Assembly (NCBI GenBank): GCA_951406725.2
Contig: OX597814.1
Location: 138,260,001 to 138,324,000 of the forward strand
Direction of reading: 5' to 3'
DNA length: 64,000 nt
From: Octopus vulgaris
Lineage: Eukaryota
Shown here: positions 949-44,992 of the stretch, in pieces
Position numbering within the stretch: the first letter of the stretch is position 1
Layout of the letters: each line of letters starts with the position of its first letter
Notes under the pieces: model-generated
The model's input: only the letters and a program-made list of their open reading frames with translations
Told to the model about the DNA's origin: nothing
Database searches by the model: none
Translations under genes and position numbers: made by a program

Positions 949-1580
949 GCCTGCCTGCCTGTCTGTTTATTTATTTATTTATTTATTTATTATTTGCAGC
1001 TGCTTGGTCTTGGCCAAACTGATGGACGAACCATCATACATGCCTGTCTGTTTGTATGTATCTATGTATGCATGAATTTATGTTTTCTTTTTCTCGTTTA
1101 GAGTTCATTTTGACCGGCCACCTGCTTGGTAGCGAGGTTGTGAAGGAAACATCTTGTTTTGTTCACCATCCTTTAAATCGTAAAGTCATGCAGAGTCTTA
1201 TTGTCCCATACATCATTTGTGGCGTTTGAATTATATAGAATTATTTATGTGTTATATTGCGCGTATGTACATACAAGCACACATAAATCCACAAATATGC
1301 ATACATACATACATGCATTTAAGCACATACACAAACAAGCACGCACATGTACATTGAAGGCGGACCTGGTGATTGAAAGCAAAATAAAATATAAAAAGAT
1401 AAAAACAGATATTAAATAGATATAAAACAAAATATTTTCAGAAAAATGGTTCAAATGTTCGGCTAGATTTAATGATAAGGTAACAGATAATTTAATAAAA
1501 CAGCTATCAACTTCAGTTTTGTCCTCGATGAGGCCATGGAGACGGCTGCATGCATGGATCAGTTGGATCTCGTTCATGTT

Positions 1581-2210
1581 AGTTTCAAATTTTGGCATAA
1601 GGCCAGCAATTTCGGTGTAGGGGGTAAGTCGATTACATGGATCCCAGTGTTCAACTGGTACTTATTTTATAGACCCTGAAAGGATGAAAAGCAAAGTCGA
1701 CCTCGGCAGAATTTGAACTTAGAACGTAAAGACGAAAGAAATACCGCTAAGGCGCAGGAGTGGCTGTGTGGTAAGTAGCTTGCTTACCAACCACATGGTT
1801 CCGGGTTCAGTCCCACTGCGTGGCATCTTGTGCAAGCGTCTTCTGCTATAGCCCCGGGCCGACCAATGCCTTGTGAGTGGATTTGGTAGACGGAAACTGA
1901 AAGAAGCCTGTCGTATATATATATATGTATGTGTTGTGTGTATATGTTTGTGTGTCTGTGTTTGTCCCCCTAGTATTGCTTGACAACCGATGCTGGTGTG
2001 TTTACGTCCCCGTCACCTAGCGGTTCGGCAAAAGAGACCGATAGAATAAGTACTGGGCTTACAAAGAAAAAGTCCCAGGGTCGATTTGCTCGACTAACGG
2101 CGGTGCTCCAGCATGGCCGCAGTCAAATGACTGAAACAAGTAAAAAAGAAAAGAGAAAGAGAAAAAGCATGTTGTCCGGCAAGCTAACGATTCTGCCAGT
2201 TCGCCACCTT
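1581..2210 (-). mobile_element. SINE family B copy interrupted by a family A SINE
   Basis: Reverse complement of the 28209 family. It breaks at ...aaataccgctaa (1750) and resumes at aagcatgttgtccggc (~2164). Confidence 0.75.
1751..2165 (+). mobile_element. tRNA-derived SINE family A, full length
   Basis: A-box-like TGGCTGTGTGGT, B-box-like GGTTCAGTCCC, internal microsatellite, 3' GGCGGTGCTCCAGCATGGCCGCAGTC..TGAAAC and A-rich tail. More than 10 copies in the window. Confidence 0.9.
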
Positions 2211-2214
2211 ACTG

Positions 2215-3130
2215 GATCTCGTTCATATTGTCCATCATGGTCTACGGTGACAGTTTTCAAAGAGTCCTTGGTGTAGTAAAACCACTGGCTGGTCTCCTTG
2301 GTAACGTCTGGGGATTTCAAATCAGGAGATTTAGGAGGCCATTTGTTAGGAGAGAATATGGTCACGAAAGTACTTGGTTTGTCACTTCTAGGTCATGAGA
2401 GCCATGCGTGGAGGGAGTAGTGCCTTGTTGGTACGCGTAGTACCTTCTCTGAGCCACTTCTTGATCAAGGATCTGACTACAGTGTTCAGTTCCTTGATGT
2501 AGGCGGTGGCCTTAGCTCTAAAGGCCTGTGAGAAGTGAAGCGGCATAACATGGCTTTCGTCAATTACAACACTCAGGACCATACAAACGACAGAAATTTG
2601 GTTCGCATTAATGTGGGTACCCCCAGAGGATATGTGTAGAGCCATCCGCATTTCTTCTGTTCATTTTACGAACATGAAGTGGCCACTTCTCATCCCGTAA
2701 GACTTGTAACTAATGTTCTCATGCACCACATGTTTGATAGTGGTCACCTTGAGCTGCACAGTGATGGCCCTTATTGACCTACTGGTGTCGTTGATAATGC
2801 CTTGGACATGCTTGACGAACTCGGCTATCTTGACGACCTCTGATAGCTGAGAATGTCTCTTTTGGCCACATATGACACGTCCTCGCTAGTGTCGACCAAC
2901 TCTTTCTTGACTCTGAACACGAAACATCTTGCCATGTTCAGGAAGCAGGTGACCTCCAAGTCACTGTGGTTAGCGAGTAGAGCCACGAGCACAGTATTAC
3001 TTTACTTTTCCTGCATCATACTACCATCTGTTATGTCAAAACTGTTGTTAAACCCGAAAGAGAAAATGAAACAACAAAAACTGTGGTGCATGCTGTGTAA
3101 CATCACATTAGGTCATCTTCCATTTATGGC
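2215..3130 (-). mobile_element. Degraded Tc1/mariner (IS630-Tc1-mariner) transposase remnant
   Basis: Minus-strand FSPNKWPPKSPDLKSPD (a WPPxSPDLNP-like motif) and MVLSVVIDESHVMPLHF..AYIKELNTVV. Homologous to 29773-30808. Confidence 0.7.
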
Positions 3131-3409
3131 AAGCTAAAGTTAGAACAATTACAGTTCACTGCTCCTCGCCCCATAGGAGAGTAGTAAACTCTAATATGAT
3201 CCTATAAAAAAAAACCCATACAGAATGGTCACAAATGGAACGCTTTTAAAAGAGAAGGTCATTCAGAAAAAAATACCTCCTTCCCCTAGTGTATCGTGTG
3301 ATATTTAAAACATTCATCGTTGTGAAATAGCAGCGAAAACTTGTTTCAAACAGAAAATTTTATAAACAGTTTTAAAACCATAAATTATTAATTTTCATCA
3401 TCATAATCA

Positions 3410-3580
3410 CAACCTTGATCCCTAACCCTAACTCTAAACCCTAAACCTATACCTAAGTGTAAACCTTAAACCACTAACTCTAAACCTATACTCTAACCCT
3501 AAACCAACTCTCTAATCCTGAAGCTAACCCTAAGCCTTAAATCCTAACACTAACCTTAAGCTCGAACCTTAAACCCTTGT
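3410..3580. repeat. Degenerate (CCCTAA)-like interstitial telomere-like tract
   Basis: Run of variant units: cctaaccctaactctaaaccctaaacctatacctaa... Confidence 0.6.
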
Positions 3581-8198: not shown

Positions 8199-8306
8199 TA
8201 TATATACATACATACATACATACATACATACATACGTAAATGTCGAACGATGAAAATGAGTGTTCAACATTGCCTTGGTGGATAAATTTATTTATTTATG
8301 TATTAA

Positions 8307-8367
8307 GGCTACCATTGGTTTCATGTAAAGAACAAAATATCTTATTATTTTAACAATTATTCAAGCC
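8307..8367 (-). ncRNA. Degenerate type I hammerhead-like motif (U3-A8-type core with one extra base)
   Basis: GGC TTGAATAA T TGT...ACA T GAAA CC AAT GGT A GCC. Homologous to 21000-21051. Confidence 0.5.
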
Positions 8368-8380
8368 GATCACATGGAGA

Positions 8381-20278: not shown

Positions 20279-20817
20279 ACAGATAGATAATAGGTGAGTA
20301 GGTAGAGAATTTGAAAGGTACTTTGAAGAGGGGCAGGGAGGAAATATACGTGAGAAATAGTCTGTGTGTATGTACGTCTTCTATGTTTGTATGTATGTAT
20401 GTATGTATGTATGTATATATATATAATTATTTTTATAACTGTATTTTTATATTATGTATTAATTTTAATGGTACACTGTATTTTTCCTCTTTGCTTATTT
20501 AATGATTTTCATTATGTTTTCAATATGATATACATAAATTTCTTTGTACGTTCCTCCCTGATGATATTCTGGCTTATAATAATTAACCAAATTGATTTAA
20601 ATATATTAAATTTGATTGATTTTATACTATAAGCGATGAATTGAAACAATTGTAGGTCTTATCAATGTATTAATAAATTTTTATTAATTTTATCTCCATC
20701 TTCTTTCTTGGTTTGTTATAATAATATATATATCTGTGTGCCTATATTATAAAGTATTCTACCAGTCTAATCTTGGATATTTCTATCCATCTGAGGTTTA
20801 TATATCCTCATCTGTAC

Positions 20818-20859
<42 letters not shown>

Positions 20860-20999
20860 TCGTCCGGTCATGGAATCGAACCCACTTGGCCTACTGGTTA
20901 GAGTGTTCAGCTTATGATCAGATATATTTTAACAGACACACGCACACAAATACACCCACCCACCCACACACACACATGCACTCTATTTGTGAGTTAACA

Positions 21000-21051
21000 A
21001 GGCTACCATTAGTTTCATGCTAAGAGAAATCTTTCAGCAATTATCAAACCT
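21000..21051 (-). ncRNA. Type I hammerhead motif with U3-A8 core
   Basis: AGGT TTGATAA T TGCTGA AAGA TT TCT C TTAGCA T GAAA CT AAT GGT A GCCT: helices I, II and III all form, with a GUA site. Confidence 0.65.
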
Positions 21052-21216
21052 GCCACATGGAACGTTGGTACTCGTTTTCAAGATAGAAACAAGTATCAAA
21101 GTTCCATGTGGCTGGCTTTCTCGGCATGAAGACAATAGTAGCATTGTTAACTCACAAACAAAGAATATTTACCCACCAATGCAGTGTTGAGCACTCATTC
21201 TCACTGTCCTATATAA

Positions 21217-21277
<61 letters not shown>

Positions 21278-29773: not shown

Positions 29774-30808
29774 AGGATGTTCGGTCTAAATTTGACGGTT
29801 TTTTATGTCTCCCTTTTTCCAGGAAAAGCTTGATAGTCAACAAGGTTGGAGAGCGTAAAGATTAAAGTTGTAGTTGAGAAAAAGTTAGCTGACAACAAGC
29901 CATCTGAATATTGGAAAAGAGTTACCTGTATCATGATGATTCGCGCCGGGTATCAAACTACCGACATTGTGACTGCTGTTCAATGCTCTGTGAACACTAT
30001 AAAGGTCGTAAGATGCGACATGAACATCATGAAGACCAAGTTACTCCAAGCTGTAAAGGTCTTTGGGCATGTCTTCAGTAAGGGTGATGGCATGCCGTCC
30101 AACATCTTTGAACAGGGCTTAGGCTTTTATTCAGACTGTTATGTGAAGCTGCTGGAGACTGTGGTCAAACCCTGGCTGGAGAGAGATGCTGCTGAAAGAC
30201 TATATATGTGACAATAGGTTTCGGCTCCTTGTCACACCACCGGTAAGAGTCAGAAGTGGTTGTCGGAGAATTTCAATGACTTCACCATCCCCAAATTCTG
30301 GCCTCCTAATTCCCCCGATTTTAATCCTCCCATGGATTACTATGTATGGTCGCAGCTGAGAAAGATACTAACCGTTCTGTCTGCAACACCAAGGACTAGT
30401 TGGTGTCCAAGATCAAGGGAATTTTCGAAGGTCTTTCAGGGACACAGTGAAGGCCGCATACGTCAAGTTCCGGAGCCGTTTTGAAGCCGTGGTAGAAGCT
30501 GAGGATGGTTACTTTGAATAAACTGTTATCTCCCAGACATAATCTAGTTGATAAATTTTGCCTTTTTAGAATACTTCTTTTTTTAGATAGGATGTCAGGC
30601 GCGGTCCTAGGAATTTTTCGAAGGGAGGGCCCAAGGTCAGAAGGAAATACAATTCCAGGAGAAGAGGGCGTAATAACATTATATAGAAGAGCGCATTTCT
30701 CTTCTTGACGGGGGCACATACCCGTCAGGCCCCACCTTGGGTCCGCCCCTGGATATTGTATTTGCGTTACATTTTATGTAAACAATCGAATTTAGCCAGA
30801 ACAACCTG
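29773..30808 (+). mobile_element. Internally deleted Tc1/mariner element with TIRs and TA TSD
   Basis: TA|CAGGATGTTCGGTCTAAATTTG ... CGAATTTAGCCAGAACAACCTG|TA. Remnant ORFs include KFWPPNSPDFNPPMDYYVWS and YVKLLETVVKPWL. Confidence 0.85.
30596..30751. mobile_element. MITE nested in the mariner element
   Basis: Imperfect TIRs CAGGCGCGGTCCTAGG ... CCTTGGGTCCGCCCCTG. Confidence 0.65.
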
Positions 30809-36322: not shown

Positions 36323-37010
36323 ATACTGGGAGGATAGAGACGGAACGAAGTGAAAATTCGAAAAATCGAAAATTCGAACGAACCCGACGCGAGCGCTGTC
36401 AGACAATAGTGTAATAAATAAAATATATGCATACATACAAACATATATGTACGTACCGACATCTACATGTATATATACATGCATATATAAATATATATGT
36501 ACAGGACACCACAGAAAGACGTAAAACTCAACAGAAACGAAAACGGAAAAGCCATTTTGTTACAACAGAAGGACACGAGAACGAAAACGGGAAAAACATT
36601 ATGTACAACAGAAAAACAGGTAAAGGACATGCTACACAAGGAAAAATCCCCTTCATCAGCTGTCACTAGCAGACATAGCGTGTTTCGAAGGCAAGACAGG
36701 ACACGTCTGGTCATGCTAAGCCTTCCTACGAGAGAATTAAAATAAAATAACCTCGCAGAGAGGTAAAATAAGCAAGAAAAAAATGTAACACAAAAAGGGA
36801 CGTAACAAAGAACTGCACAATAAAATACAAGAAAAAAATACAAAATTAAAAATACATGTACAAGAAAATACAAAACGAGAAATAAATTACAAAACGAGAA
36901 ATCAATATAAACAAGAGAAAAAACGAAAAAAAACGAACGAAAGGCCTTTGTTCTGGCAGGGACGAAAGAGGTAACTGGCGAGCGCTGGGAAACATGACCT
37001 TAGGGCCTGA
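36318..37010 (-). mobile_element. PLE-like remnant with GAAAC..GTC-N12-CTGATGA
   Basis: Motif at 36653-36686(-). Homologous to 8665-9012. Confidence 0.55.
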
Positions 37011-37049
37011 AGCTATGCATGTATAAAGGTGTATATACATGTATGTTCA

Positions 37050-37124
<75 letters not shown>

Positions 37125-37182
37125 TTATTAGTGAATTGAAGAAATGGAGTTGAACGAAGATTGAACAGAATTCCTTTTATTG

Positions 37183-37270
37183 TATTCTACACATGTTTCA
37201 AAAGCCACAATTTTCCAAATTCTGATTAAATAAGGATCCCATATTGTGGCTTTCTCTTCTGGAAAAAAAT
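37183..37270 (-). ncRNA. Decayed type I hammerhead-like motif with long helix II
   Basis: C CAGAAGA G AAAGCCACAAT...ATTGTGGCTTT T GAAACATGT G TAGAATA. Palindromic ACATGT. (TA)n on both sides. Confidence 0.4.
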
Positions 37271-37319
37271 AGGAATTCCGTTGGCAGAACAATATATATA
37301 TATATATATATGTATAAAA

Positions 37320-37640
37320 ATTATATATAAAATTTACAAAAGGGGACAAGAACGCAAACCACACAAAGAGACGACACAAAAAAAAAAAAAAACAGGCAGG
37401 TCATTCGAAGCCTCTAATCTTCAGTCAGGAACCGGATCATCTTAGCAATTTCGGCTGATTAATCCTGATATCGCTCCGATCCGGCCAGCCCCAAGGAAAC
37501 ACTAAGCTACGAGCATTAGATTTCTTGGAAAAAGGATCGAATGTATACGAAACAAAACCGGACGATGCCACACGAATATAAATAAAAGAAACAAAAAATA
37601 AAAATAAAAAACAAGAATAGTAATAACAGGACAGCGGGAG
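37320..37640 (-). mobile_element. PLE-like remnant with permuted HHR-like motif (GAAA..ATC-N10-CTGAAGA)
   Basis: Motif at 37418-37452(-). Homologous to 33180-33595. Confidence 0.55.
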
Positions 37641-37933
37641 TCTTACGACTTCAGACAATTTAACTTATCTTGGCTGGCGTATTTTGAAAAAAATGCCTTT
37701 GCGGCAGACGAAAACAACAGTGTTAACATGGCAGCGGTCAAAGGCGAAAAGACCAGTTGAACAGCAGTCACGTGAGAGGACATGTATTGATGTATATAAA
37801 TGTATATATATATGAATATATATATATGTATATATATACATATATACATGGCGGTGCCCCAGCATGGCCACAGCTCATAAGCTGAAACTGGAAAAATCAA
37901 AAATCAAATCAAAATCATATTTATGTATATATT

Positions 37934-37984
<51 letters not shown>

Positions 37985-37994
<10 letters not shown>

Positions 37995-38723
37995 AAAGGT
38001 TTGAAAATGCAATTTAAACGATGTTTATTTACTTAACCGGTTTCACTCTTTGTTAAAAAGATTGTCAAAAGTAACATTGAATATTATGGGTTCAAAAAAA
38101 GTTTTTTACATAATTGTCACATTGAATATTATGAATTCAAAAATGTTTTTTTATACATAATTGTCACATTACATGTATAAATATAGTATAAAAAAGTTCA
38201 ATAGTGTGATGAGAATATTTGGAAAAATTGGCAGAAAAGAATAAAACAAATATATTATTGGAAATTTGGTTGCGTTAATTATTGGTTGTCGCAAATTGTC
38301 ACATTACATGTATATATATACAGTCTTTGGTAGAAATGACATGTTAAAGACATAAGGAAGTGTAATAGTTTGGTGAGAAAGCTTGTAATATTGACAGAGA
38401 AAATTAAAATGGATATTTTAGACATCTCAGAATATTTTGAATCGAAGGCGAGAATTTGTTTTTTACTGACCTGTTTGTTTTAGCAGAAAAGTTGAATTGA
38501 GAGAAAAAAGATATGTACCCAATTTGGTTTATACTTCCCCTTCAAGCATCAGTGACTTTGGGGTTATTGGGAGGTGAGTATGCGGGTGTGAATAGATGTG
38601 TCCGTGTGCCTGCTGGTCAGACAGCGTCTGTTTGTCACACACATATATACACACACACACACAACAACAATACACACACACACATAGTATACACACACAC
38701 ACCACATACACACAACACACACA
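37985..38723 (-). repeat. Inverted pseudo-LTR (left arm)
   Basis: Reverse complement of 42311-43050. By eye, 2 substitutions (38116/42919 and 38227/42808) and one homopolymer indel (~38504/42525). Confidence 0.95.
38029..38074 (-). ncRNA. Hammerhead ribozyme motif (U3-A8) in left pseudo-LTR
   Basis: Exact reverse complement of 42961-43006. Confidence 0.7.
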
Positions 38724-40916
38724 AGAGGACTAAAATTCACCCCAACTCCGCAATACCCTAACCTGAGGGAAATACAGGATGACATCTCACACTTTTGCAG
38801 AAAATTACGCCTCACAGAGGAATTCTTTGACAGGAAAACTAATAATAACGACGAATCAATGGTCCGTAACAAAAGCAACTATAATCCCATAAAAGGCAAA
38901 AACAAAACCTTAGACAAATTTTGCGATTACATCTCAAACTTCCCTTATGGTGAACTCCCACAACCTAAACTCAAACCCAACACCAGTAAAAGAGAATGGG
39001 AAATCATACATACGCTACGAGACAATCACAACGTCACAATAAAGGAAGCTGATAAGGGTAGTACGGTCGTTGTTATGAATACTGAGCAATATAAAAACTC
39101 TGTATCTCTCCTTTTAGAGGATACCACATACTATGAGAGAGTAGTCGACTACCAGCAATCCAAAACAATGACCAAACTGAAGGCACTCATTTACCAACAC
39201 CGGAATGACTTGACAGCAAAGGAATGCGACTACATTACTAAATTTAATTGCAAAACCAGCACACTCTATGGGCTTCCAAAAATACACAAGAGTCAAATTA
39301 TCACAGAAGCTTGCAAAAAGTCCACTTCAACCTGCATCACTATACCACATCCCACTGATCTCAAACTGAGACCAATAGTGGCAGGCCCAAGTTGTGAAAC
39401 ACACAGACTTAGCAACTTTATAGATATCATCTTAAAGCCAATACTGAAACACATTCCAAGTATTGTAAGAGATGACCTGGACCTATTAAATCATCTCCCC
39501 AAACATGCCGATAAAGACACCTTAATCGTTTCTTTTGATGTTATTAATCTTTACACCACAATCCCACATGAATATGGACTGGAAGCCATTAAATTCTGGC
39601 TGGATAAATATCCCAATGAGATCCCGGAAAGAATTAAAAAAGAATTCATAATTGAGGGCCTCAAATTTATTCTGCAAAACAACTTCATGTATTTCCACAA
39701 CAACACTTACAGACAGGTCTCAGGAACTGCAATGGGTACGAAAGTTGCACCTACCTATGCAAACCTGGTGATGGCCTACCTGGAATCACATATCTATGAA
39801 AAATCCAAATATAAGTACGGCCAGTCTTTCCACAAATACCTGTTGGAGAACTGGAAACGCTACTTAGATGATTGCCTCATCCTATGGTCCCACACACTCG
39901 ACCAACTTAAAGACTTCAAAAACCTTATCAACAGTGTTAATAACAACATTCAATTCACAATGGAATATAGTCAGGACCAACTCCCTTTTCTTGACATCCT
40001 AATCATTAAAAAAGGCGTCAACATTGAAACTGACATCCATTACAAACCCACTGACTCTAAACAATACCTTCTATTCACCTCCAATCACCCAAAACACACA
40101 AAGACAAATATCCCCTTCAACCTAGCGAGAAGAATCTGCACTATTGTCTCAAATGACACAACACGAAATAGAAGACTCCGGGAACTAAGGGCAATTCTTC
40201 TCGAAAGACATTACCCGGCATCACTAGTAGACAACGGAATAGAACGGGCCAAATCAATCAACATTCAAGACCTACGAAAACCCAAACACATCCACAGTTC
40301 AGTAAATAGCCTCCCCTATCTCTCAACACACAACCCAAGGAATGCAGAAGCTTACACTATTATATACAACAACATTCCACAACTAAATCAAGACCCACGC
40401 CTGAAAAAAATACTGGCAGCTCATAAAATAATAAAAAGTAAGAGACAACCTAAATCCCTAAAAAACCTCCTCACCAACGCAAAATTACACAACACAAACC
40501 CACCGCCCACCATCAAAAAATGTGGTCGCCCCAATTGCAAGACCTGCATCCACCTCATTGAGGGATCGTCGTACAAGTTCCACTCGGGACACACATTCAT
40601 CATAAAAAATAATTTCACGTGCGCATCAAAAAATTTACTCTACGTCATAAGGTGTGAAGGATGCCACGAAGACTACATAGGGCAAACGAGCCTTACCCTC
40701 AGAGAAAGAATGACAGTTCACCGACAACAACTGAGGGACCCCTCCACAAGACAGATACCACTAAGTGGACACTTAGACCTTTGTGCACACAATAAGTCCC
40801 CCAAATTCTTAGTCTTCCCACTATACCAATGCTCGGACAACACCACAGACCAAACACGAATAAATAAGGAAAGTAATCTTATTCAAAAATACAGACCACA
40901 ACTAAACATACTCTAA
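38724..40916 (+). CDS. Penelope-like reverse transcriptase + GIY-YIG endonuclease (N-terminally truncated; first ATG at 38859)
   Basis: PLE motifs RGLKFTPTP..FCRKLRL (in frame upstream of the ATG), KEADKG, YGLPKIHK, LRPIV, SFDVINLYT, GTAMGTKVAPTYANL, WKRYLDD, LPFLD and HYKPTD. Cys linker CGRPNCKTC. GIY-YIG region LLYVIRCEGCHEDYIGQT..RERMTVHR..GHL. No internal stops. Confidence 0.95.
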   Translation, partial: RGLKFTPTPQYPNLREIQDDISHFCRKLRLTEEFFDRKTNNNDESMVRNKSNYNPIKGKNKTLDKFCDYISNFPYGELPQPKLKPNTSKREWEIIHTLRDNHNVTIKEADKGSTVVVMNTEQYKNSVSLLLEDTTYYERVVDYQQSKTMTKLKALIYQHRNDLTAKECDYITKFNCKTSTLYGLPKIHKSQIITEACKKSTSTCITIPHPTDLKLRPIVAGPSCETHRLSNFIDIILKPILKHIPSIVRDDLDLLNHLPKHADKDTLIVSFDVINLYTTIPHEYGLEAIKFWLDKYPNEIPERIKKEFIIEGLKFILQNNFMYFHNNTYRQVSGTAMGTKVAPTYANLVMAYLESHIYEKSKYKYGQSFHKYLLENWKRYLDDCLILWSHTLDQLKDFKNLINSVNNNIQFTMEYSQDQLPFLDILIIKKGVNIETDIHYKPTDSKQYLLFTSNHPKHTKTNIPFNLARRICTIVSNDTTRNRRLRELRAILLERHYPASLVDNGIERAKSINIQDLRKPKHIHSSVNSLPYLSTHNPRNAEAYTIIYNNIPQLNQDPRLKKILAAHKIIKSKRQPKSLKNLLTNAKLHNTNPPPTIKKCGRPNCKTCIHLIEGSSYKFHSGHTFIIKNNFTCASKNLLYVIRCEGCHEDYIGQTSLTLRERMTVHRQQLRDPSTRQIPLSGHLDLCAHNKSPKFLVFPLYQCSDNTTDQTRINKESNLIQKYRPQLNIL

Positions 40917-41049
40917 CATACCCCCTGGGCACACATCCAGAGCAGGCACACAGGGGCACGCGCACACTCACAGCATATCGTGCGGGTGGGCACATGCGCG
41001 CATCGGCACGCATAGGACACACTAGCGGGCATTGACCGCACACATACGT

Positions 41050-41326
41050 GGCACGCACACGCATGCATTATATATATGTAGGTTATGTATGTGTGTGAGT
41101 GTTGTGTGTGTGTGTGTGAGTGTGCACGTTGTGTGTGTGTGTGTGCGCGTGTGTTTATGTGTGTGTGTGTGTGTGCACTGTGTGCGTGTGTGTATGTGTG
41201 TGTGTGTGCGCGCGTTGTGTGTGTGTGTGCACGTGTGTATATATGTGTGTGTGTGTGCGTGTGTGTGTGTATGTGTGTGTGTGTGAGCATTGTGTACGAG
41301 TGTATGTATTTACATGTGTATTTGTT

Positions 41327-41360
<34 letters not shown>

Positions 41361-42159
41361 CTGTGTGTGTATATGCATGGTATGTGTGTATATGTGAGTA
41401 CATTGTTTGTGTGTGTGTGCGGTATGTAGAGATATATTTGAGTGTGTACACTATAGGTTTGTATTTTTTGTGTGTGTGGGTGTGTGTGTGTGAATTTTAT
41501 ATATATATGTGTGTGTATGTGTGTGAAAAAATATATGTATGTGCATGTATGTATGTATGTATATGTGTATATATATATATATATGTGTATATATATATAT
41601 GTGTGTGTGTATGTGTGTGTGTGTATATATATTTTCATGTATATGGGTGTATAAACATGTGCATTATTTGCATGCGCATTGTGTATATGTATATTGTATG
41701 TATGTGTATTGTATATGTATGTGTACAATTAAGTGTATATATGTGTGTATGTGTGCATTGTATATATGTATATTGTAAGTGTGCTATATATACATGAATA
41801 CATGTATATACGTTGCGTGTATATATATGTATGCATTGTGTATGTATGTTATGTGTGTGTGTGTCTATATATTTTATATGTATGCGTACGTGTATGTGTA
41901 TGCATTGTATGTATGTATATTGTGTGTATATGTGGTATATCTATGTATGTGTATGTAAACACTATTTATATGTATATATGTATATATGTATATGCATTGT
42001 CTATATATATATATATTATATGTATGTATTGCGTATGTATATTGCATGCATATATTGTGTATGTGTATTATATACATGCTGTGTATGTGTATTGTATGTG
42101 TATATATATGCTAGGTGTATTTGTGTGATATTTATATTATGTATATATGTGTGCGTGTG

Positions 42160-42196
<37 letters not shown>

Positions 42197-42400
42197 GTGT
42201 GTGTATGTTTTATATATGTGTGTATATTATATATAAATACATGTTATATTTGTGTGCTGTGTGTATATATTATATATGTGGGTGCGTTGTGTGTGTGTGT
42301 GTTCTGTGTGTGTGTGTGTTGTGTGTATGTGGTGTGTGTGTGTATACTATGTGTGTGTGTGTATTGTTGTTGTGTGTGTGTGTGTATATATGTGTGTGAC
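41050..42400. repeat. Compound imperfect (TG)/(TA) low-complexity tract in the PLE 3' UTR
   Basis: Lies between the ORF stop and the pseudo-LTR. Its distal ~90 bp is copied in the left arm. Confidence 0.85.
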
Positions 42401-43050
42401 AAACAGACGCTGTCTGACCAGCAGGCACACGGACACATCTATTCACACCCGCATACTCACCTCCCAATAACCCCAAAGTCACTGATGCTTGAAGGGGAAG
42501 TATAAACCAAATTGGGTACATATCTTTTTTTCTCTCAATTCAACTTTTCTGCTAAAACAAACAGGTCAGTAAAAAACAAATTCTCGCCTTCGATTCAAAA
42601 TATTCTGAGATGTCTAAAATATCCATTTTAATTTTCTCTGTCAATATTACAAGCTTTCTCACCAAACTATTACACTTCCTTATGTCTTTAACATGTCATT
42701 TCTACCAAAGACTGTATATATATACATGTAATGTGACAATTTGCGACAACCAATAATTAACGCAACCAAATTTCCAATAATATATTTGTTTTATTCTTTT
42801 CTGCCAACTTTTCCAAATATTCTCATCACACTATTGAACTTTTTTATACTATATTTATACATGTAATGTGACAATTATGTATAAAAAAACATTTTTGAAT
42901 TCATAATATTCAATGTGATAATTATGTAAAAAACTTTTTTTGAACCCATAATATTCAATGTTACTTTTGACAATCTTTTTAACAAAGAGTGAAACCGGTT
43001 AAGTAAATAAACATCGTTTAAATTGCATTTTCAAACCTTTTTTCATATAT
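42311..43050 (+). repeat. 3' pseudo-LTR (right arm)
   Basis: See left arm. Contains short internal repeats (AATGTGACAATT), the HHR and AATAAA at 43006. Confidence 0.95.
42961..43006 (+). ncRNA. Minimal type I hammerhead ribozyme with compensatory U3-A8 core
   Basis: TTACTT TTGACAA T CTTTTT AAC AAAGAG T GAAA CC GG T T AAGTAA: 6-bp helix I, U.U plus 6-bp helix II, palindromic ACCGGU helix III. Predicted cleavage after 43000 (GUU). Sense to the ORF. Confidence 0.72.
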
Positions 43051-43083
43051 AATCCCACTCGTGCGATACCCCACAACTCAACT

Positions 43084-43127
<44 letters not shown>

Positions 43128-43272
43128 GTATTTATGCATGTATATATGTGTATATATTTATATTTATGCATATATGTGTATATATATAGATGTGTATATA
43201 TATATATATATATATATGATTGATTGATTGATTGATTCTAGTTTCAGCTTATGAGCTGTGGCCATGCTGGGG

Positions 43273-43327
<55 letters not shown>

Positions 43328-43940
43328 ATATGTATAGATACATACGATACATACAACAGTTTCTGTCTACCAAGTTTCTGTCCAAAATGCCGCGCAATCG
43401 GACTGAACGCGAAGCCGCTTAGTTGCGAAGCGAACTTCTTAATCCAATAGCTATTTTTTCAATGTCTACATTGAAATCCATCAGTGGTGTCGCAGTCGCT
43501 ATTATGATATTTCAAACATTCCTCAAACTCTGGGTCCATTCGTTAGTGTGTTTGATTAGTACGGAGAAAGCGTCACGAATTCGAATCTCTGACGGTTTGA
43601 TCTTCAAAACCCTTGTATCCATGAGAAATCTCTCCTGTTGCAGGGACATTCCGCTACTACAGTCTGTCTTGGTCCACCCTGACGCGTTCTTTCAATGCGT
43701 GATGGGCAATGAGGAGTATTGGTAGGCTTTGAAGCCCCAGGCGGAATTTGAACCACCCTAGATAGGTACCATATTTACAGATTGCCGAAGGGACAAAAAG
43801 TAGATTTAAGTTCGAGTGAACTTGAGTTCAGAAACTCAGAATCAGAACGAACAGAGCAAAGCGTTCTCTTATTTAACGATGTTGACAATTCGCCGCTTAT
43901 ATCGCTGCATACATGCATGCATGCATGCATGCATGCTTGC

Positions 43941-43971
<31 letters not shown>

Positions 43972-44276
43972 CATACATACATACATACATACATACATGC
44001 ATGCATGCATGCATGCATGCATGCATATACACGCTGCCTACAGCAGTATGTATGCTTGATTTTTCTTTGAGTTTTATTTAAGTTCTTCTTGAGAGAGTTT
44101 AAGCCGGTCGCTAAAAAAAAGCAACCAGAGATTTTGAGTTATGAGAGTTCCCGGTGTTTGTAAATTCGTGGTCAAGTTGATGCGTTGGTTGAACTGTTAT
44201 GCATACACCTAAGTGTGTGTGTGTATGCATGCATGCAGGTATGTATGCATTTTTGTATCCATCCATCCATCCATCC

Positions 44277-44356
<80 letters not shown>

Positions 44357-44388
44357 CTGTCTGTCTTATATTTATTATATATATATAA

Positions 44389-44434
<46 letters not shown>

Positions 44435-44992
44435 GTATTGTTTTGTGTGCCGGTTTGCCTTTATATATATGTAACACAAACAGGTACACATAATACTACA
44501 TAAGCATGCTTATGAATATAGTCGGCTATTTCTTAACTCTGAGCATTTCATTGTTGATCTGAGCGTGGGACGAATATCGTGTTGATGGCAAAATTATCGT
44601 GCTAGAGAAGGATTCGATCTCAGCACTATATATTAACAAGCGGCATATATTTCTCGTTCATTCGGCGCTATGCAAGTGACCAGTTCACACTACTCTCGTG
44701 ATCTGTCATATCCAGGTAAGTGAAAGTGGACCAGGACATTACAATACTAACAAAAAGAAAAAAAAAAAAGAAAAGACCTGCGACTGTGTCTATTTATAAA
44801 AAAAACAACCTAAGACGTGTGTAGTAGAGCCTAACTTATGTACACTGTTATTGCGTTTGAGGGTGAGAAGTGTGTGTGTGAGTATATATAAACAAATATA
44901 CGCAAGGAGTGTAATTGCTTTCTACATACACACACACACACACACATATATATACATACATGCATGCATCCATACATACATTTCCACGCACG

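Follow-up and report, generated by a model that had tools for sequence, protein, structure and literature searches.

A young, 5'-truncated Penelope-like element with an inverted pseudo-LTR, most likely of Neptune type, in a (TA)n microsatellite of Octopus vulgaris

Introduction

In a 64,000-nt stretch of Octopus vulgaris DNA (contig OX597814.1, called the window here), the 3' end of a retrotransposon is repeated in inverted orientation directly against the retrotransposon's own reading frame. How did this arrangement arise, to which lineage of Penelope-like elements (PLEs) does the copy belong, and could it still act by itself? For O. vulgaris, 31 families with a total of 336 recently active Penelope-like insertions have been reported (PMC13282606). 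We read the locus as a young Neptune-type PLE copy, 5'-truncated and probably non-autonomous, that was inserted by priming from two starts on two strands, and we assign this reading a probability of about 0.8. The identity and truncation of the element, taken by themselves, are highly likely; among the possible routes of insertion, the two-priming route is somewhat favored. The inverted pseudo-LTR, the tail, the TA target and U3-A8 hammerheads have each been published for PLEs before. The features of the locus are collected in Table 1.

Table 1. Features of the element and its flanks, in window coordinates
Feature	Position	Strand	Remarks
SINE-like 3' end, left flank, outside the element	37850..37917	+	38-nt core 37852-37889; AATC-type tail; faces the element
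Left target flank, (TA)26	37938..37989	.	Repeat hides the exact boundary and any target-site duplication
Inverted pseudo-LTR (left arm)	37984..38723	-	740 nt; copied from the element 3' end, without tail
Mirror U3-A8 hammerhead motif, left arm	38029..38074	-	Core at 38068
5'-truncated ORF	38724..40916	+	730 codons; begins at the GLKF motif
Reverse transcriptase core (RVT_1)	39369..39929	+	Pfam E 1e-7
CX4CX2C Zn-finger-like linker	40521..40547	+	C600-C608
GIY-YIG endonuclease, C-terminal	40635..40901	+	Internal CxxC, R662, H666, H683, E716
3' region, 2.2 kb	40917..43088	+	Inferred 3' UTR
Degenerate (TG)/(TA) tract within 3' region, 1.35 kb	41050..42398	+	
Right pseudo-LTR, repeated as the left arm	42311..43051	+	741 nt
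Type I minimal hammerhead motif, U3-A8 core	42961..43006	+	Core 42967-42974
Tail	43052..43088	+	37 nt (38 counting the first T of the TA run); right end only
Right target flank, (TA)13	43089..43114	.	
Second SINE-like copy, right flank, outside the element	43217..43277	-	Core 38/38 nt identical; different AATC tail; faces the element

Results

Structure of the insertion

The initial annotation of this DNA had described an inverted arm of about 740 bp that meets the ORF at 38723/38724, about three changes between the arms, and a 38-nt tail confined to the right end, and our analysis bore out each of these. The left arm abuts the truncated ORF head-to-head and ends on its inner side in a (CA)n; both outer ends of the element are element 3' ends. 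Pairwise alignment of the arms gave 3 differences in 741 columns, consisting of two substitutions, both C/T on the sense strand (38116/42919 and 38227/42808), and a 1-nt indel in a T run (38503/42531). This divergence suggests an insertion age of approximately 0.4 My (0.05-1.4). Because the two substitutions are C/T changes on the sense strand, A-to-I editing was rejected as their origin. Transcription through both arms would give RNA able to pair as a duplex of 740 bp, on which silencing or A-to-I editing would be likely to act.

The tail is 62% A+C, and each of its halves occurs once in the window. It folds no better than shuffled sequences (37 of 200 fold equally well), so an anole-type tail stem-loop is without support here. 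Further upstream in the 3' region, purines and pyrimidines alternate at 89% in the (TG)/(TA) tract, compared to 54% for the window, and the last 88 nt of the tract were copied into the left arm. The (TA)n reported on both flanks was found, with 26 and 13 units, but counts as one observation and not two, since a single insertion into a TA run yields both. TA runs of at least 5 units make up 3.3% of the window outside the element; runs of at least 6 units were seen at none of 16 related loci, most of which are short contigs of distant elements. The 64-kb window contains neither a second copy of the family nor other PLE coding fragments; our sample is one copy, too few to establish that the family is active or that it targets TA.

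Origin of the inverted arm

From the anole Poseidon system, we infer the following route to the observed anatomy. Protein from an intact source copy would bind the family RNA, and its GIY-YIG domain would nick both strands of the (TA)n tract, whose two strands read alike. Each 3'-OH would then prime reverse transcription at one of two internal starts, 37-38 nt apart, close to the RNA's 3' end. The distal start would yield a long cDNA reaching from the tail to 38724, approximately 25-45 codons short of the ORF start, and the proximal start a 740-nt cDNA on the other strand; the two unfinished cDNA ends would finally be joined head-to-head. Dual-strand priming, as the initial annotation had suggested, is reasonable, given that the anole Poseidon protein cuts and extends both DNA strands at AT-rich sites in vitro (PMC11167929). 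The tail of the anole element is the sequence between two reverse transcription start sites, and the starts lie in AC-rich RNA (PMC11167929). The two-start mechanism was demonstrated for a Poseidon element, and its use by a Neptune here would be by analogy. Inverted 5'-truncated copies, one-sided tails of 30-40 bp and a TA bias are typical of PLEs (PMC8557442), and one related locus (L006) carries a natural inverted and tandem pseudo-LTR with 99.1% identity. The octopus copy is a clean in-vivo example that agrees with two-start, two-strand priming, a model that until now only a Poseidon element has been shown to follow, and it supplies exact predicted start sites for a Neptune.

The best-surviving alternative, possible but doubtful, is that a single reverse transcriptase produced the inverted arm through self-priming or a template switch on its own RNA, its cDNA or an antisense transcript, and not through two target-primed events. 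For head-to-head inversions of PLEs, self-priming on an antisense template has been proposed (PMC3846280), and the simple (CA)n at the inner end of the arm favors template switching. The self-priming model relies on junction palindromes, but only 4 of 40 positions mirrored across the junction match in our copy. Moreover, TA adjoins both outer ends, and the difference between them is exactly the tail, which is what two start sites predict.

It is improbable that the structure records two events, an older insertion followed by a solo 3' end that entered in inverted orientation by insertion or gene conversion; the age would then be greater than arm identity implies. Solo PLE-like 3' ends do exist at microsatellites elsewhere in the window (8236-8380 and 20857-21225), and the two arm substitutions could stem from two different template RNAs. 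However, neither TA nor host sequence separates the arm from the ORF, no stop or frameshift interrupts the 730 codons, and the same architecture recurs in L006 and across PLE clades.

Protein domains and clade assignment

The Neptune clade was reportedly first defined by Arkhipova in 2006. A stop-free ORF of about 730 codons with a reverse transcriptase (RT), a CxxxxCxxC linker and a GIY-YIG domain had been proposed for this locus and was confirmed by the matches in Table 1. The RT contains YLDD (39861-39872), with a DKG motif upstream of the core and a GxKF motif, and the ORF has no insertion between RT3 and RT4 (IFD); the first six Foldseek ranks were telomerase RTs. The C-terminal 134 aa matched Pfam GIY-YIG (E 1.4e-5) and carry, with C644, C647, H666, H683, R662 and E716, both the CCHH motif and the catalytic R, H and E residues, and the catalytic motifs of the ORF read as intact. 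Other searches were uninformative: the single match in a PDB sequence search was meaningless (E 0.44), NCBIfam gave just a weak group II RT match far under cut-off, and a homodimer prediction for residues 8-500 of a homologue scored 0.01 against a mark of 0.32, speaking neither for nor against a dimer. A telomerase-related RT, GIY-YIG in the same ORF, an inverted pseudo-LTR, a tail in the 30-40 nt range and a hammerhead motif together place the element among the EN+ PLEs.

The Cys linker had been taken as a mark of the Neptune clade, a claim that we could not uphold, because the Cys linker is common to Neptune, Nematis and Naiad (PMC8557442). A spacer of 24 residues separates the linker from the Cys that precedes the GIY motif, and the spacer measures 23-25 aa in 112 of the 115 matching proteins (of 121). 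In the text of Fig. S2 of PMC8557442, compared by eye, the spacer is 25-27 aa in four Neptune rows and approximately 7 aa in three Nematis rows. RT4 ends in APTYAN, as in two Neptune rows and differing from the Nematis and Penelope/Poseidon rows, also by eye. The spacer length and the RT4 motif favor Neptune, as the linker and the C-terminal nuclease allow, and the element is most likely a Neptune-type PLE judging from these sequence features. Penelope/Poseidon elements have no Cys linker, whereas one is present here. In a quick tree of unnamed relatives, without named Neptune, Nematis or Poseidon references, a Cys-linker clade of 19 rows that includes the element received 100% SH-aLRT, and a branch of 2.57 set it apart from 9 linker-less rows; even the published tree shows Neptune as paraphyletic.

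We consider it unlikely that the element is instead a Nematis or belongs to an unnamed Cys-linker lineage. Nematis too carries CX2-5CxxC and a C-terminal endonuclease, and no named references in our tree test it against Neptune, but the reduced linker and short spacer of Nematis were not found, and the RT4 ending also speaks against it. Overall, the initial picture of a young PLE, most likely Neptune-type, with an inverted pseudo-LTR, a one-sided tail and a TA target, is supported, the near-identity of the arms included. The element indicates a young cephalopod family of Neptune type, which is of modest importance.

Coding capacity

The copy had also been described as coding-intact, which our reading of its 5' end contradicts. 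The stop-free frame spans 38688-40916; the left arm contributes 12 codons to it, with no ATG, before a stop is reached upstream, and the first in-frame ATG (38859) is codon 46 after the junction. An INLS-like motif, present in all 48 homologues that extend at least 22 aa upstream of GLKF, is absent, and by this comparison the ORF lacks a predicted 25-45 or so N-terminal residues. Structure prediction for a full-length homologue gave a strand and a helix in the missing segment (pLDDT 96); pTM rose from 0.75 to 0.85 with the N-terminus, a gain confounded by alignment depth and by the use of a different protein. Elsewhere the ORF deviates at 7 of 172 conserved columns, each deviation being found also in at least one homologue. 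The sense-oriented (tandem) pseudo-LTR that carries the promoter in characterized PLEs is absent upstream of the ORF, and there is no pyrimidine tract before the junction. The copy thus lacks the complete N-terminus, the start codon and the upstream sense pseudo-LTR of a full-length autonomous copy, and is 5'-truncated and probably non-autonomous.

Coding intactness and autonomy, with a start at Met46 or one spliced in from the inverted arm, are very unlikely, even though 730 codons are open, all catalytic motifs are present, no deviation at conserved columns is private, and a bidirectional pseudo-LTR promoter is suggested for rotifer PLEs. A Met46 start would leave the INLS-like motif missing and would also remove the GLKF motif and a predicted helix (14-33), and the arm offers neither an ATG nor a pyrimidine tract for splicing, nor a promoter in tandem position. 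Least probable of all is that the inversion is spurious, made by the assembly or by a read folding back: assemblies often have difficulty with structures of this kind (PMC8557442), but a fold-back mirrors junction-adjacent sequence, which the few matching positions do not show, and not a segment 3.6 kb away, and between the arms there are two substitutions and the difference of a tail of canonical length.

Hammerhead motif

Each arm contains a putative hammerhead with a U3-A8 core. The right motif has stems I and II of 6 bp each and a palindromic stem III (42994-42999), with cleavage predicted after 43000; the end of the arm lies 51 nt, and that of the tail 88 nt, after this cut. The stem score was 15 and none of 2000 shuffles reached 12, in a test that is post hoc, because the search was opened to any Watson-Crick 3-8 pair when the motif had already been spotted by eye. 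The minimum-energy structure is not that of the hammerhead (z 0.56), and the window holds at least one further U3-A8 motif elsewhere. A canonical CTGAnG search of the window found none in the element, and at 9 of the 16 related loci the same finder recovered canonical cores. An Rfam scan of 36500-44500 returned 95 matches; all fell short of their gathering scores, and no hammerhead was among them. The CTGATGC at 42482 has no GAAA arm and was dismissed as a hammerhead site. The predicted U3-A8 hammerhead in both arms, missed by Rfam, is new here. As a consequence of this core variant, hammerhead counts in such genomes will come out too low when they are made with Rfam or C3-G8 searches.

SINE-like ends in the flanks

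Two SINE-like 3' ends lie 96 and 152 nt from the element. Their motif has 13 matches in the window, and only the two flanking ones carry that variant sequence, the other 11 sharing 23-29 of 38 nt; our literature search for the motif in octopus found no paper. We rejected an inverted flank duplication, as spacers and tails differ between the sides. The differing tails and 5' ends of the two copies point to two independent insertions. They would be passengers if PLE-made TA nicks, or the PLE RT, inserted a minimal retroposon of another class, and PLE target sites would then gather symmetric passengers; we regard this as improbable, and a common preference for one long TA microsatellite accounts for the pair equally well. 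The symmetric pair of identical 38-nt SINE-like 3' ends around the element is new here.

Comparison with known elements

Naiad and Hydra PLEs have both been reported in Octopus (PMC8557442 File S1) and share TA targeting, an inverted pseudo-LTR and a tail with our element, Naiad also a long Cys linker. Neither fits the element: Naiad/Chlamys elements have an N-terminal nuclease, DKA or DK and an IFD (Naiad has DKA, usually an IFD, and no canonical hammerhead), and Hydra elements have DKT, a CxCX5C linker, no CCHH and a GxKF that is not conserved. The closest named protein, the uncharacterized Octopus bimaculoides LOC106870299, aligns to 57% of the query at 83% identity and is a fragment from a close family; it differs in its length of 419 aa, its degraded RT motifs, and the lack of linker and nuclease in the predicted protein. 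The hammerheads resemble those of Schistosoma Cercyon (PMC4209133), which are likewise type I minimal motifs in pseudo-LTRs with a U3-A8 core, opposite-strand pairs, an extra base before stem II and a palindromic stem III. Cercyon differs in host and PLE lineage, and our element has a stem I of 6 bp and a hammerhead activity that is predicted.

The Anolis carolinensis Poseidon element PAc (PMC11167929) shares an AC-rich tail between two 3' ends, an AT-rich target and a hammerhead just upstream. It belongs to the Penelope/Poseidon clade, without a Cys linker, and its pseudo-LTR overlaps the ORF start; unlike in PAc, the pseudo-LTR region of our element has no tblastn match to PLE proteins. Compared to Neptune elements (PMC8557442), the octopus element is truncated, has a 2.2-kb 3' region with a 1.35-kb (TG)/(TA) tract and a U3-A8 instead of a C3-G8 hammerhead core, and lacks a tandem pseudo-LTR. 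With Neptune it shares the RT, the CX2-5CxxC linker with a long spacer, the C-terminal GIY-YIG with CCHH, the DKG and GxKF motifs, the absence of an IFD, the hammerhead in the pseudo-LTR, the TA target, the inverted 5'-truncated copy and the 30-40 nt tail.

Structure and target site of the element

Pairwise alignment of the left arm (37984-38723) with the reverse complement of the right arm (42311-43051), the two pseudo-LTR copies of the Penelope-like element (PLE), gave three differences in 741 columns: two transitions and one base within a T run. The coding sequence abuts the left arm directly (junction 38723/38724), and a 37-nt segment (43052-43088), which occurs once within the window, lies 3' of the right arm only. 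The element is flanked by uninterrupted TA runs, of 26 units on the left and 13 on the right. All measurements of the initial annotation (arms, junction, one-sided tail, TA flanks and open frame) were accurate on re-measurement, and the arm alignment is the one it had proposed. TA runs make up 3.3% of the window outside the element; the two TA flanks are the outcome of a single insertion event rather than two observations, and one copy cannot demonstrate family-wide activity or a TA preference.

The element copy is 5'-truncated

The ORF of the element copy starts at the GLKF motif, and the seven closest homologues that cover the N-terminal end (P0002-P0008) have their Met start 27-43 residues further upstream. 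All 48 homologues that extend 22 residues or more beyond this point carry an INLS-like motif there, at a fixed distance. The absent N-terminal segment is a strand plus a helix (pLDDT 96) in the model of one full-length homologue. The inverted arm contributes 12 codons, none of them ATG, and the first in-frame ATG is codon 46. No tandem pseudo-LTR was found at the element; the promoter resides in the tandem pseudo-LTR in two characterised PLEs discussed in PMC8557442. The initial description of the element as coding-intact was thus not borne out.

In L001, a related Neptune-like locus at 41% identity, a long upstream frame (3-1265, with one internal stop) overlaps the RT frame (1199-3511) in -1 phase. 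Where the two frames overlap, a T run precedes a structured segment, and no Met lies before the INLS motif; this arrangement suggests ribosomal frameshifting. Pfam returned no significant match for the upstream frame. Extra ORFs are mentioned for Neptune-like elements (PMC5408684, PMC12602865); by analogy with these and with the L001 upstream frame, the element copy may have lost more than the N-terminus.

Encoded protein and clade assignment

The stop-free frame spans 38688-40916 and encodes 730 residues counted from the junction; Pfam identifies an RT domain and a GIY-YIG domain, the latter in the final 134 residues. The AlphaFold model has a mean pLDDT of 89.8; telomerase RTs took ranks 1-6 in a PDB fold search with this model, as expected for a PLE. 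Of 7028 candidate proteins in a homologue search, 1020 matched with an E-value of 1e-10 or lower. The closest named protein among the 120 matches listed was Octopus bimaculoides LOC106870299 (83% identity), which makes an octopus the probable host. The protein retains the GxKF, DKG, RT3, RT4 and YLDD motifs, the CX4CX2C linker, the CCHH residues and R662/E716. Among 172 columns at least 90% conserved in 100 proteins of at least 690 aa (out of 121), the element deviates at seven, the median of the compared proteins being four. Each deviation also occurs in at least one homologue, so the retained part of the protein carries no private lesion.

The Cys linker had been taken to mark Neptune; it is also common to Nematis and Naiad (PMC8557442), and together with the C-terminal nuclease it narrows the choice to Neptune or Nematis. 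Neptune-type is favoured by spacer length and RT4. The spacer between the linker and the Cys before GIY is 24 residues long in the element; among the 115 pattern-matching proteins (121 examined), 112 have a spacer of 23-25. Counted by eye in the Fig. S2 text of PMC8557442, it is 25-27 in four Neptune rows and about 7 in three Nematis rows. The element RT4 looks, by eye, like the two Neptune rows of Fig. S1 in that paper. A quickly built tree without named references took in 28 rows: 14 from the 121 proteins, and 14 from the 16 related loci after omission of the duplicate L010 and of L016, which yielded no usable frame. It placed the element protein within a 19-row clade (100% SH-aLRT), distant from nine linker-less rows. 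Neptune-type is well supported by these sequence features, not proven by phylogeny.

A predicted hammerhead motif

The initial annotation mentions no hammerhead, and neither an Rfam scan nor a canonical-core search found one in the element; the latter found canonical cores in 9/16 related loci. By eye we recognised a predicted type I minimal hammerhead at 42961-43006 (stems of 6, 6 and 3 bp), in which a U3-A8 pair replaces C3-G8, and the search pattern was widened only after this. Its score is 15; among 2000 dinucleotide shuffles of 42399-43088, five reached 9 and none reached 12. The arm ends 51 nt and the tail 88 nt downstream, and the left arm holds a mirror copy. U3-A8 cores are already known from Schistosoma PLEs, whose minimal form is likewise shared by our motif, and minimal motifs of that kind cleave poorly as monomers (PMC4209133). 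Since the hammerhead fold is not the minimum-energy structure, activity of the putative ribozyme is unproven.

A 45-nt tandem repeat of two copies (42865-42961, mirrored at 38074-38170) lies directly 5' of the motif; one of the two arm substitutions falls inside it.

Insertion mechanism and age

The anole Poseidon protein cuts and extends both strands of AT-rich DNA in vitro, and reverse-transcribes from two internal start sites bounding the tail (PMC11167929). By analogy, we infer that each of two nicks within the (TA)n tract would prime one cDNA on the family 3' end; a 4.4-kb product starting at 43088 and a 740-nt product starting at 43051 would then be joined head-to-head. The main rival to this two-nick route is self-priming or template switching (PMC3846280), against which stands the non-palindromic junction. 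PMC13282606 quotes a rate of 0.0036 per site per My for O. bimaculoides, with which the two substitutions in 740 nt correspond to an age of 0.38 My (95% range 0.05-1.4). The age would be lower if RT errors contributed to the differences, and higher in the case of gene conversion.

Surroundings of the element

Apart from the element's own ORF, no long frame in the window looked clearly protein-coding, and we saw no sibling copy of the element. Two SINE-like 3' ends stand 96 and 152 nt from the element; they are identical over 38 nt and differ in their AATC tails. This core folds into two hairpins (6/200 shuffles were as good), the second of which departs from the common variant on both stem sides. 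The other 11 window matches are the commoner variant, mostly ending a longer dispersed repeat. PLE-like 3' ends of a second family, with hammerhead-like motifs, adjoin microsatellites at two places.

Features of the window around the element
Feature	Position	Strand	Remarks
Dispersed abundant repeat, conserved SINE-like 3' end	11 sites, e.g. 2101, 9744, 19136, 29348, 50329		presumably 'octopus SINE, RTE-type tail'
Degenerate CCCTAA array	3420-3559		telomere-repeat-like, about 22 units
Second PLE-like family, third copy	8236-8380	-	hammerhead-like motif; ends at (TATG)n repeat
Weaker PLE-like 3' end candidate	20558-20660	+	canonical-core hammerhead-like motif (long stem II, stem I only 2 bp), TA run about 160 nt further on; may be a further old PLE end
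Second PLE-like family, head-to-head pair of 3' ends	20857-21225	both	between TA runs, 67% alike; at 21047 the minus-strand end carries a hammerhead motif of U3-A8 type scoring 14, partner looks decayed
Short open frame	29837-30211	+	translation presumably resembles a decayed Tc1/mariner transposase piece
SINE-like 3' end, left flank	37850-37917	+	faces element
SINE-like 3' end, right flank	43217-43277	-	faces element

Comparison with known PLEs

Our search of the published literature found no description of this family; recently active PLEs are already catalogued in O. vulgaris (PMC13282606), and the family may already be named, for example in Repbase, in Dfam or in the supplement of that paper. 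The loci L001-L015 encode PLE-like RTs, and many of them have hammerheads as well as pseudo-LTRs in tandem or inverted arrangement. They lie in contigs deposited as bacterial MAGs and look like contamination from animal hosts, a problem already noted in PMC8557442. In rotifer Pen1, long spacers precede the 3' pseudo-LTR (PMC3846280). The element shares the typical PLE traits described in PMC8557442, namely an inverted 5'-truncated copy, a one-sided tail (30-40 nt in known PLEs), a TA target in keeping with their TA bias, and a hammerhead motif in the pseudo-LTR.
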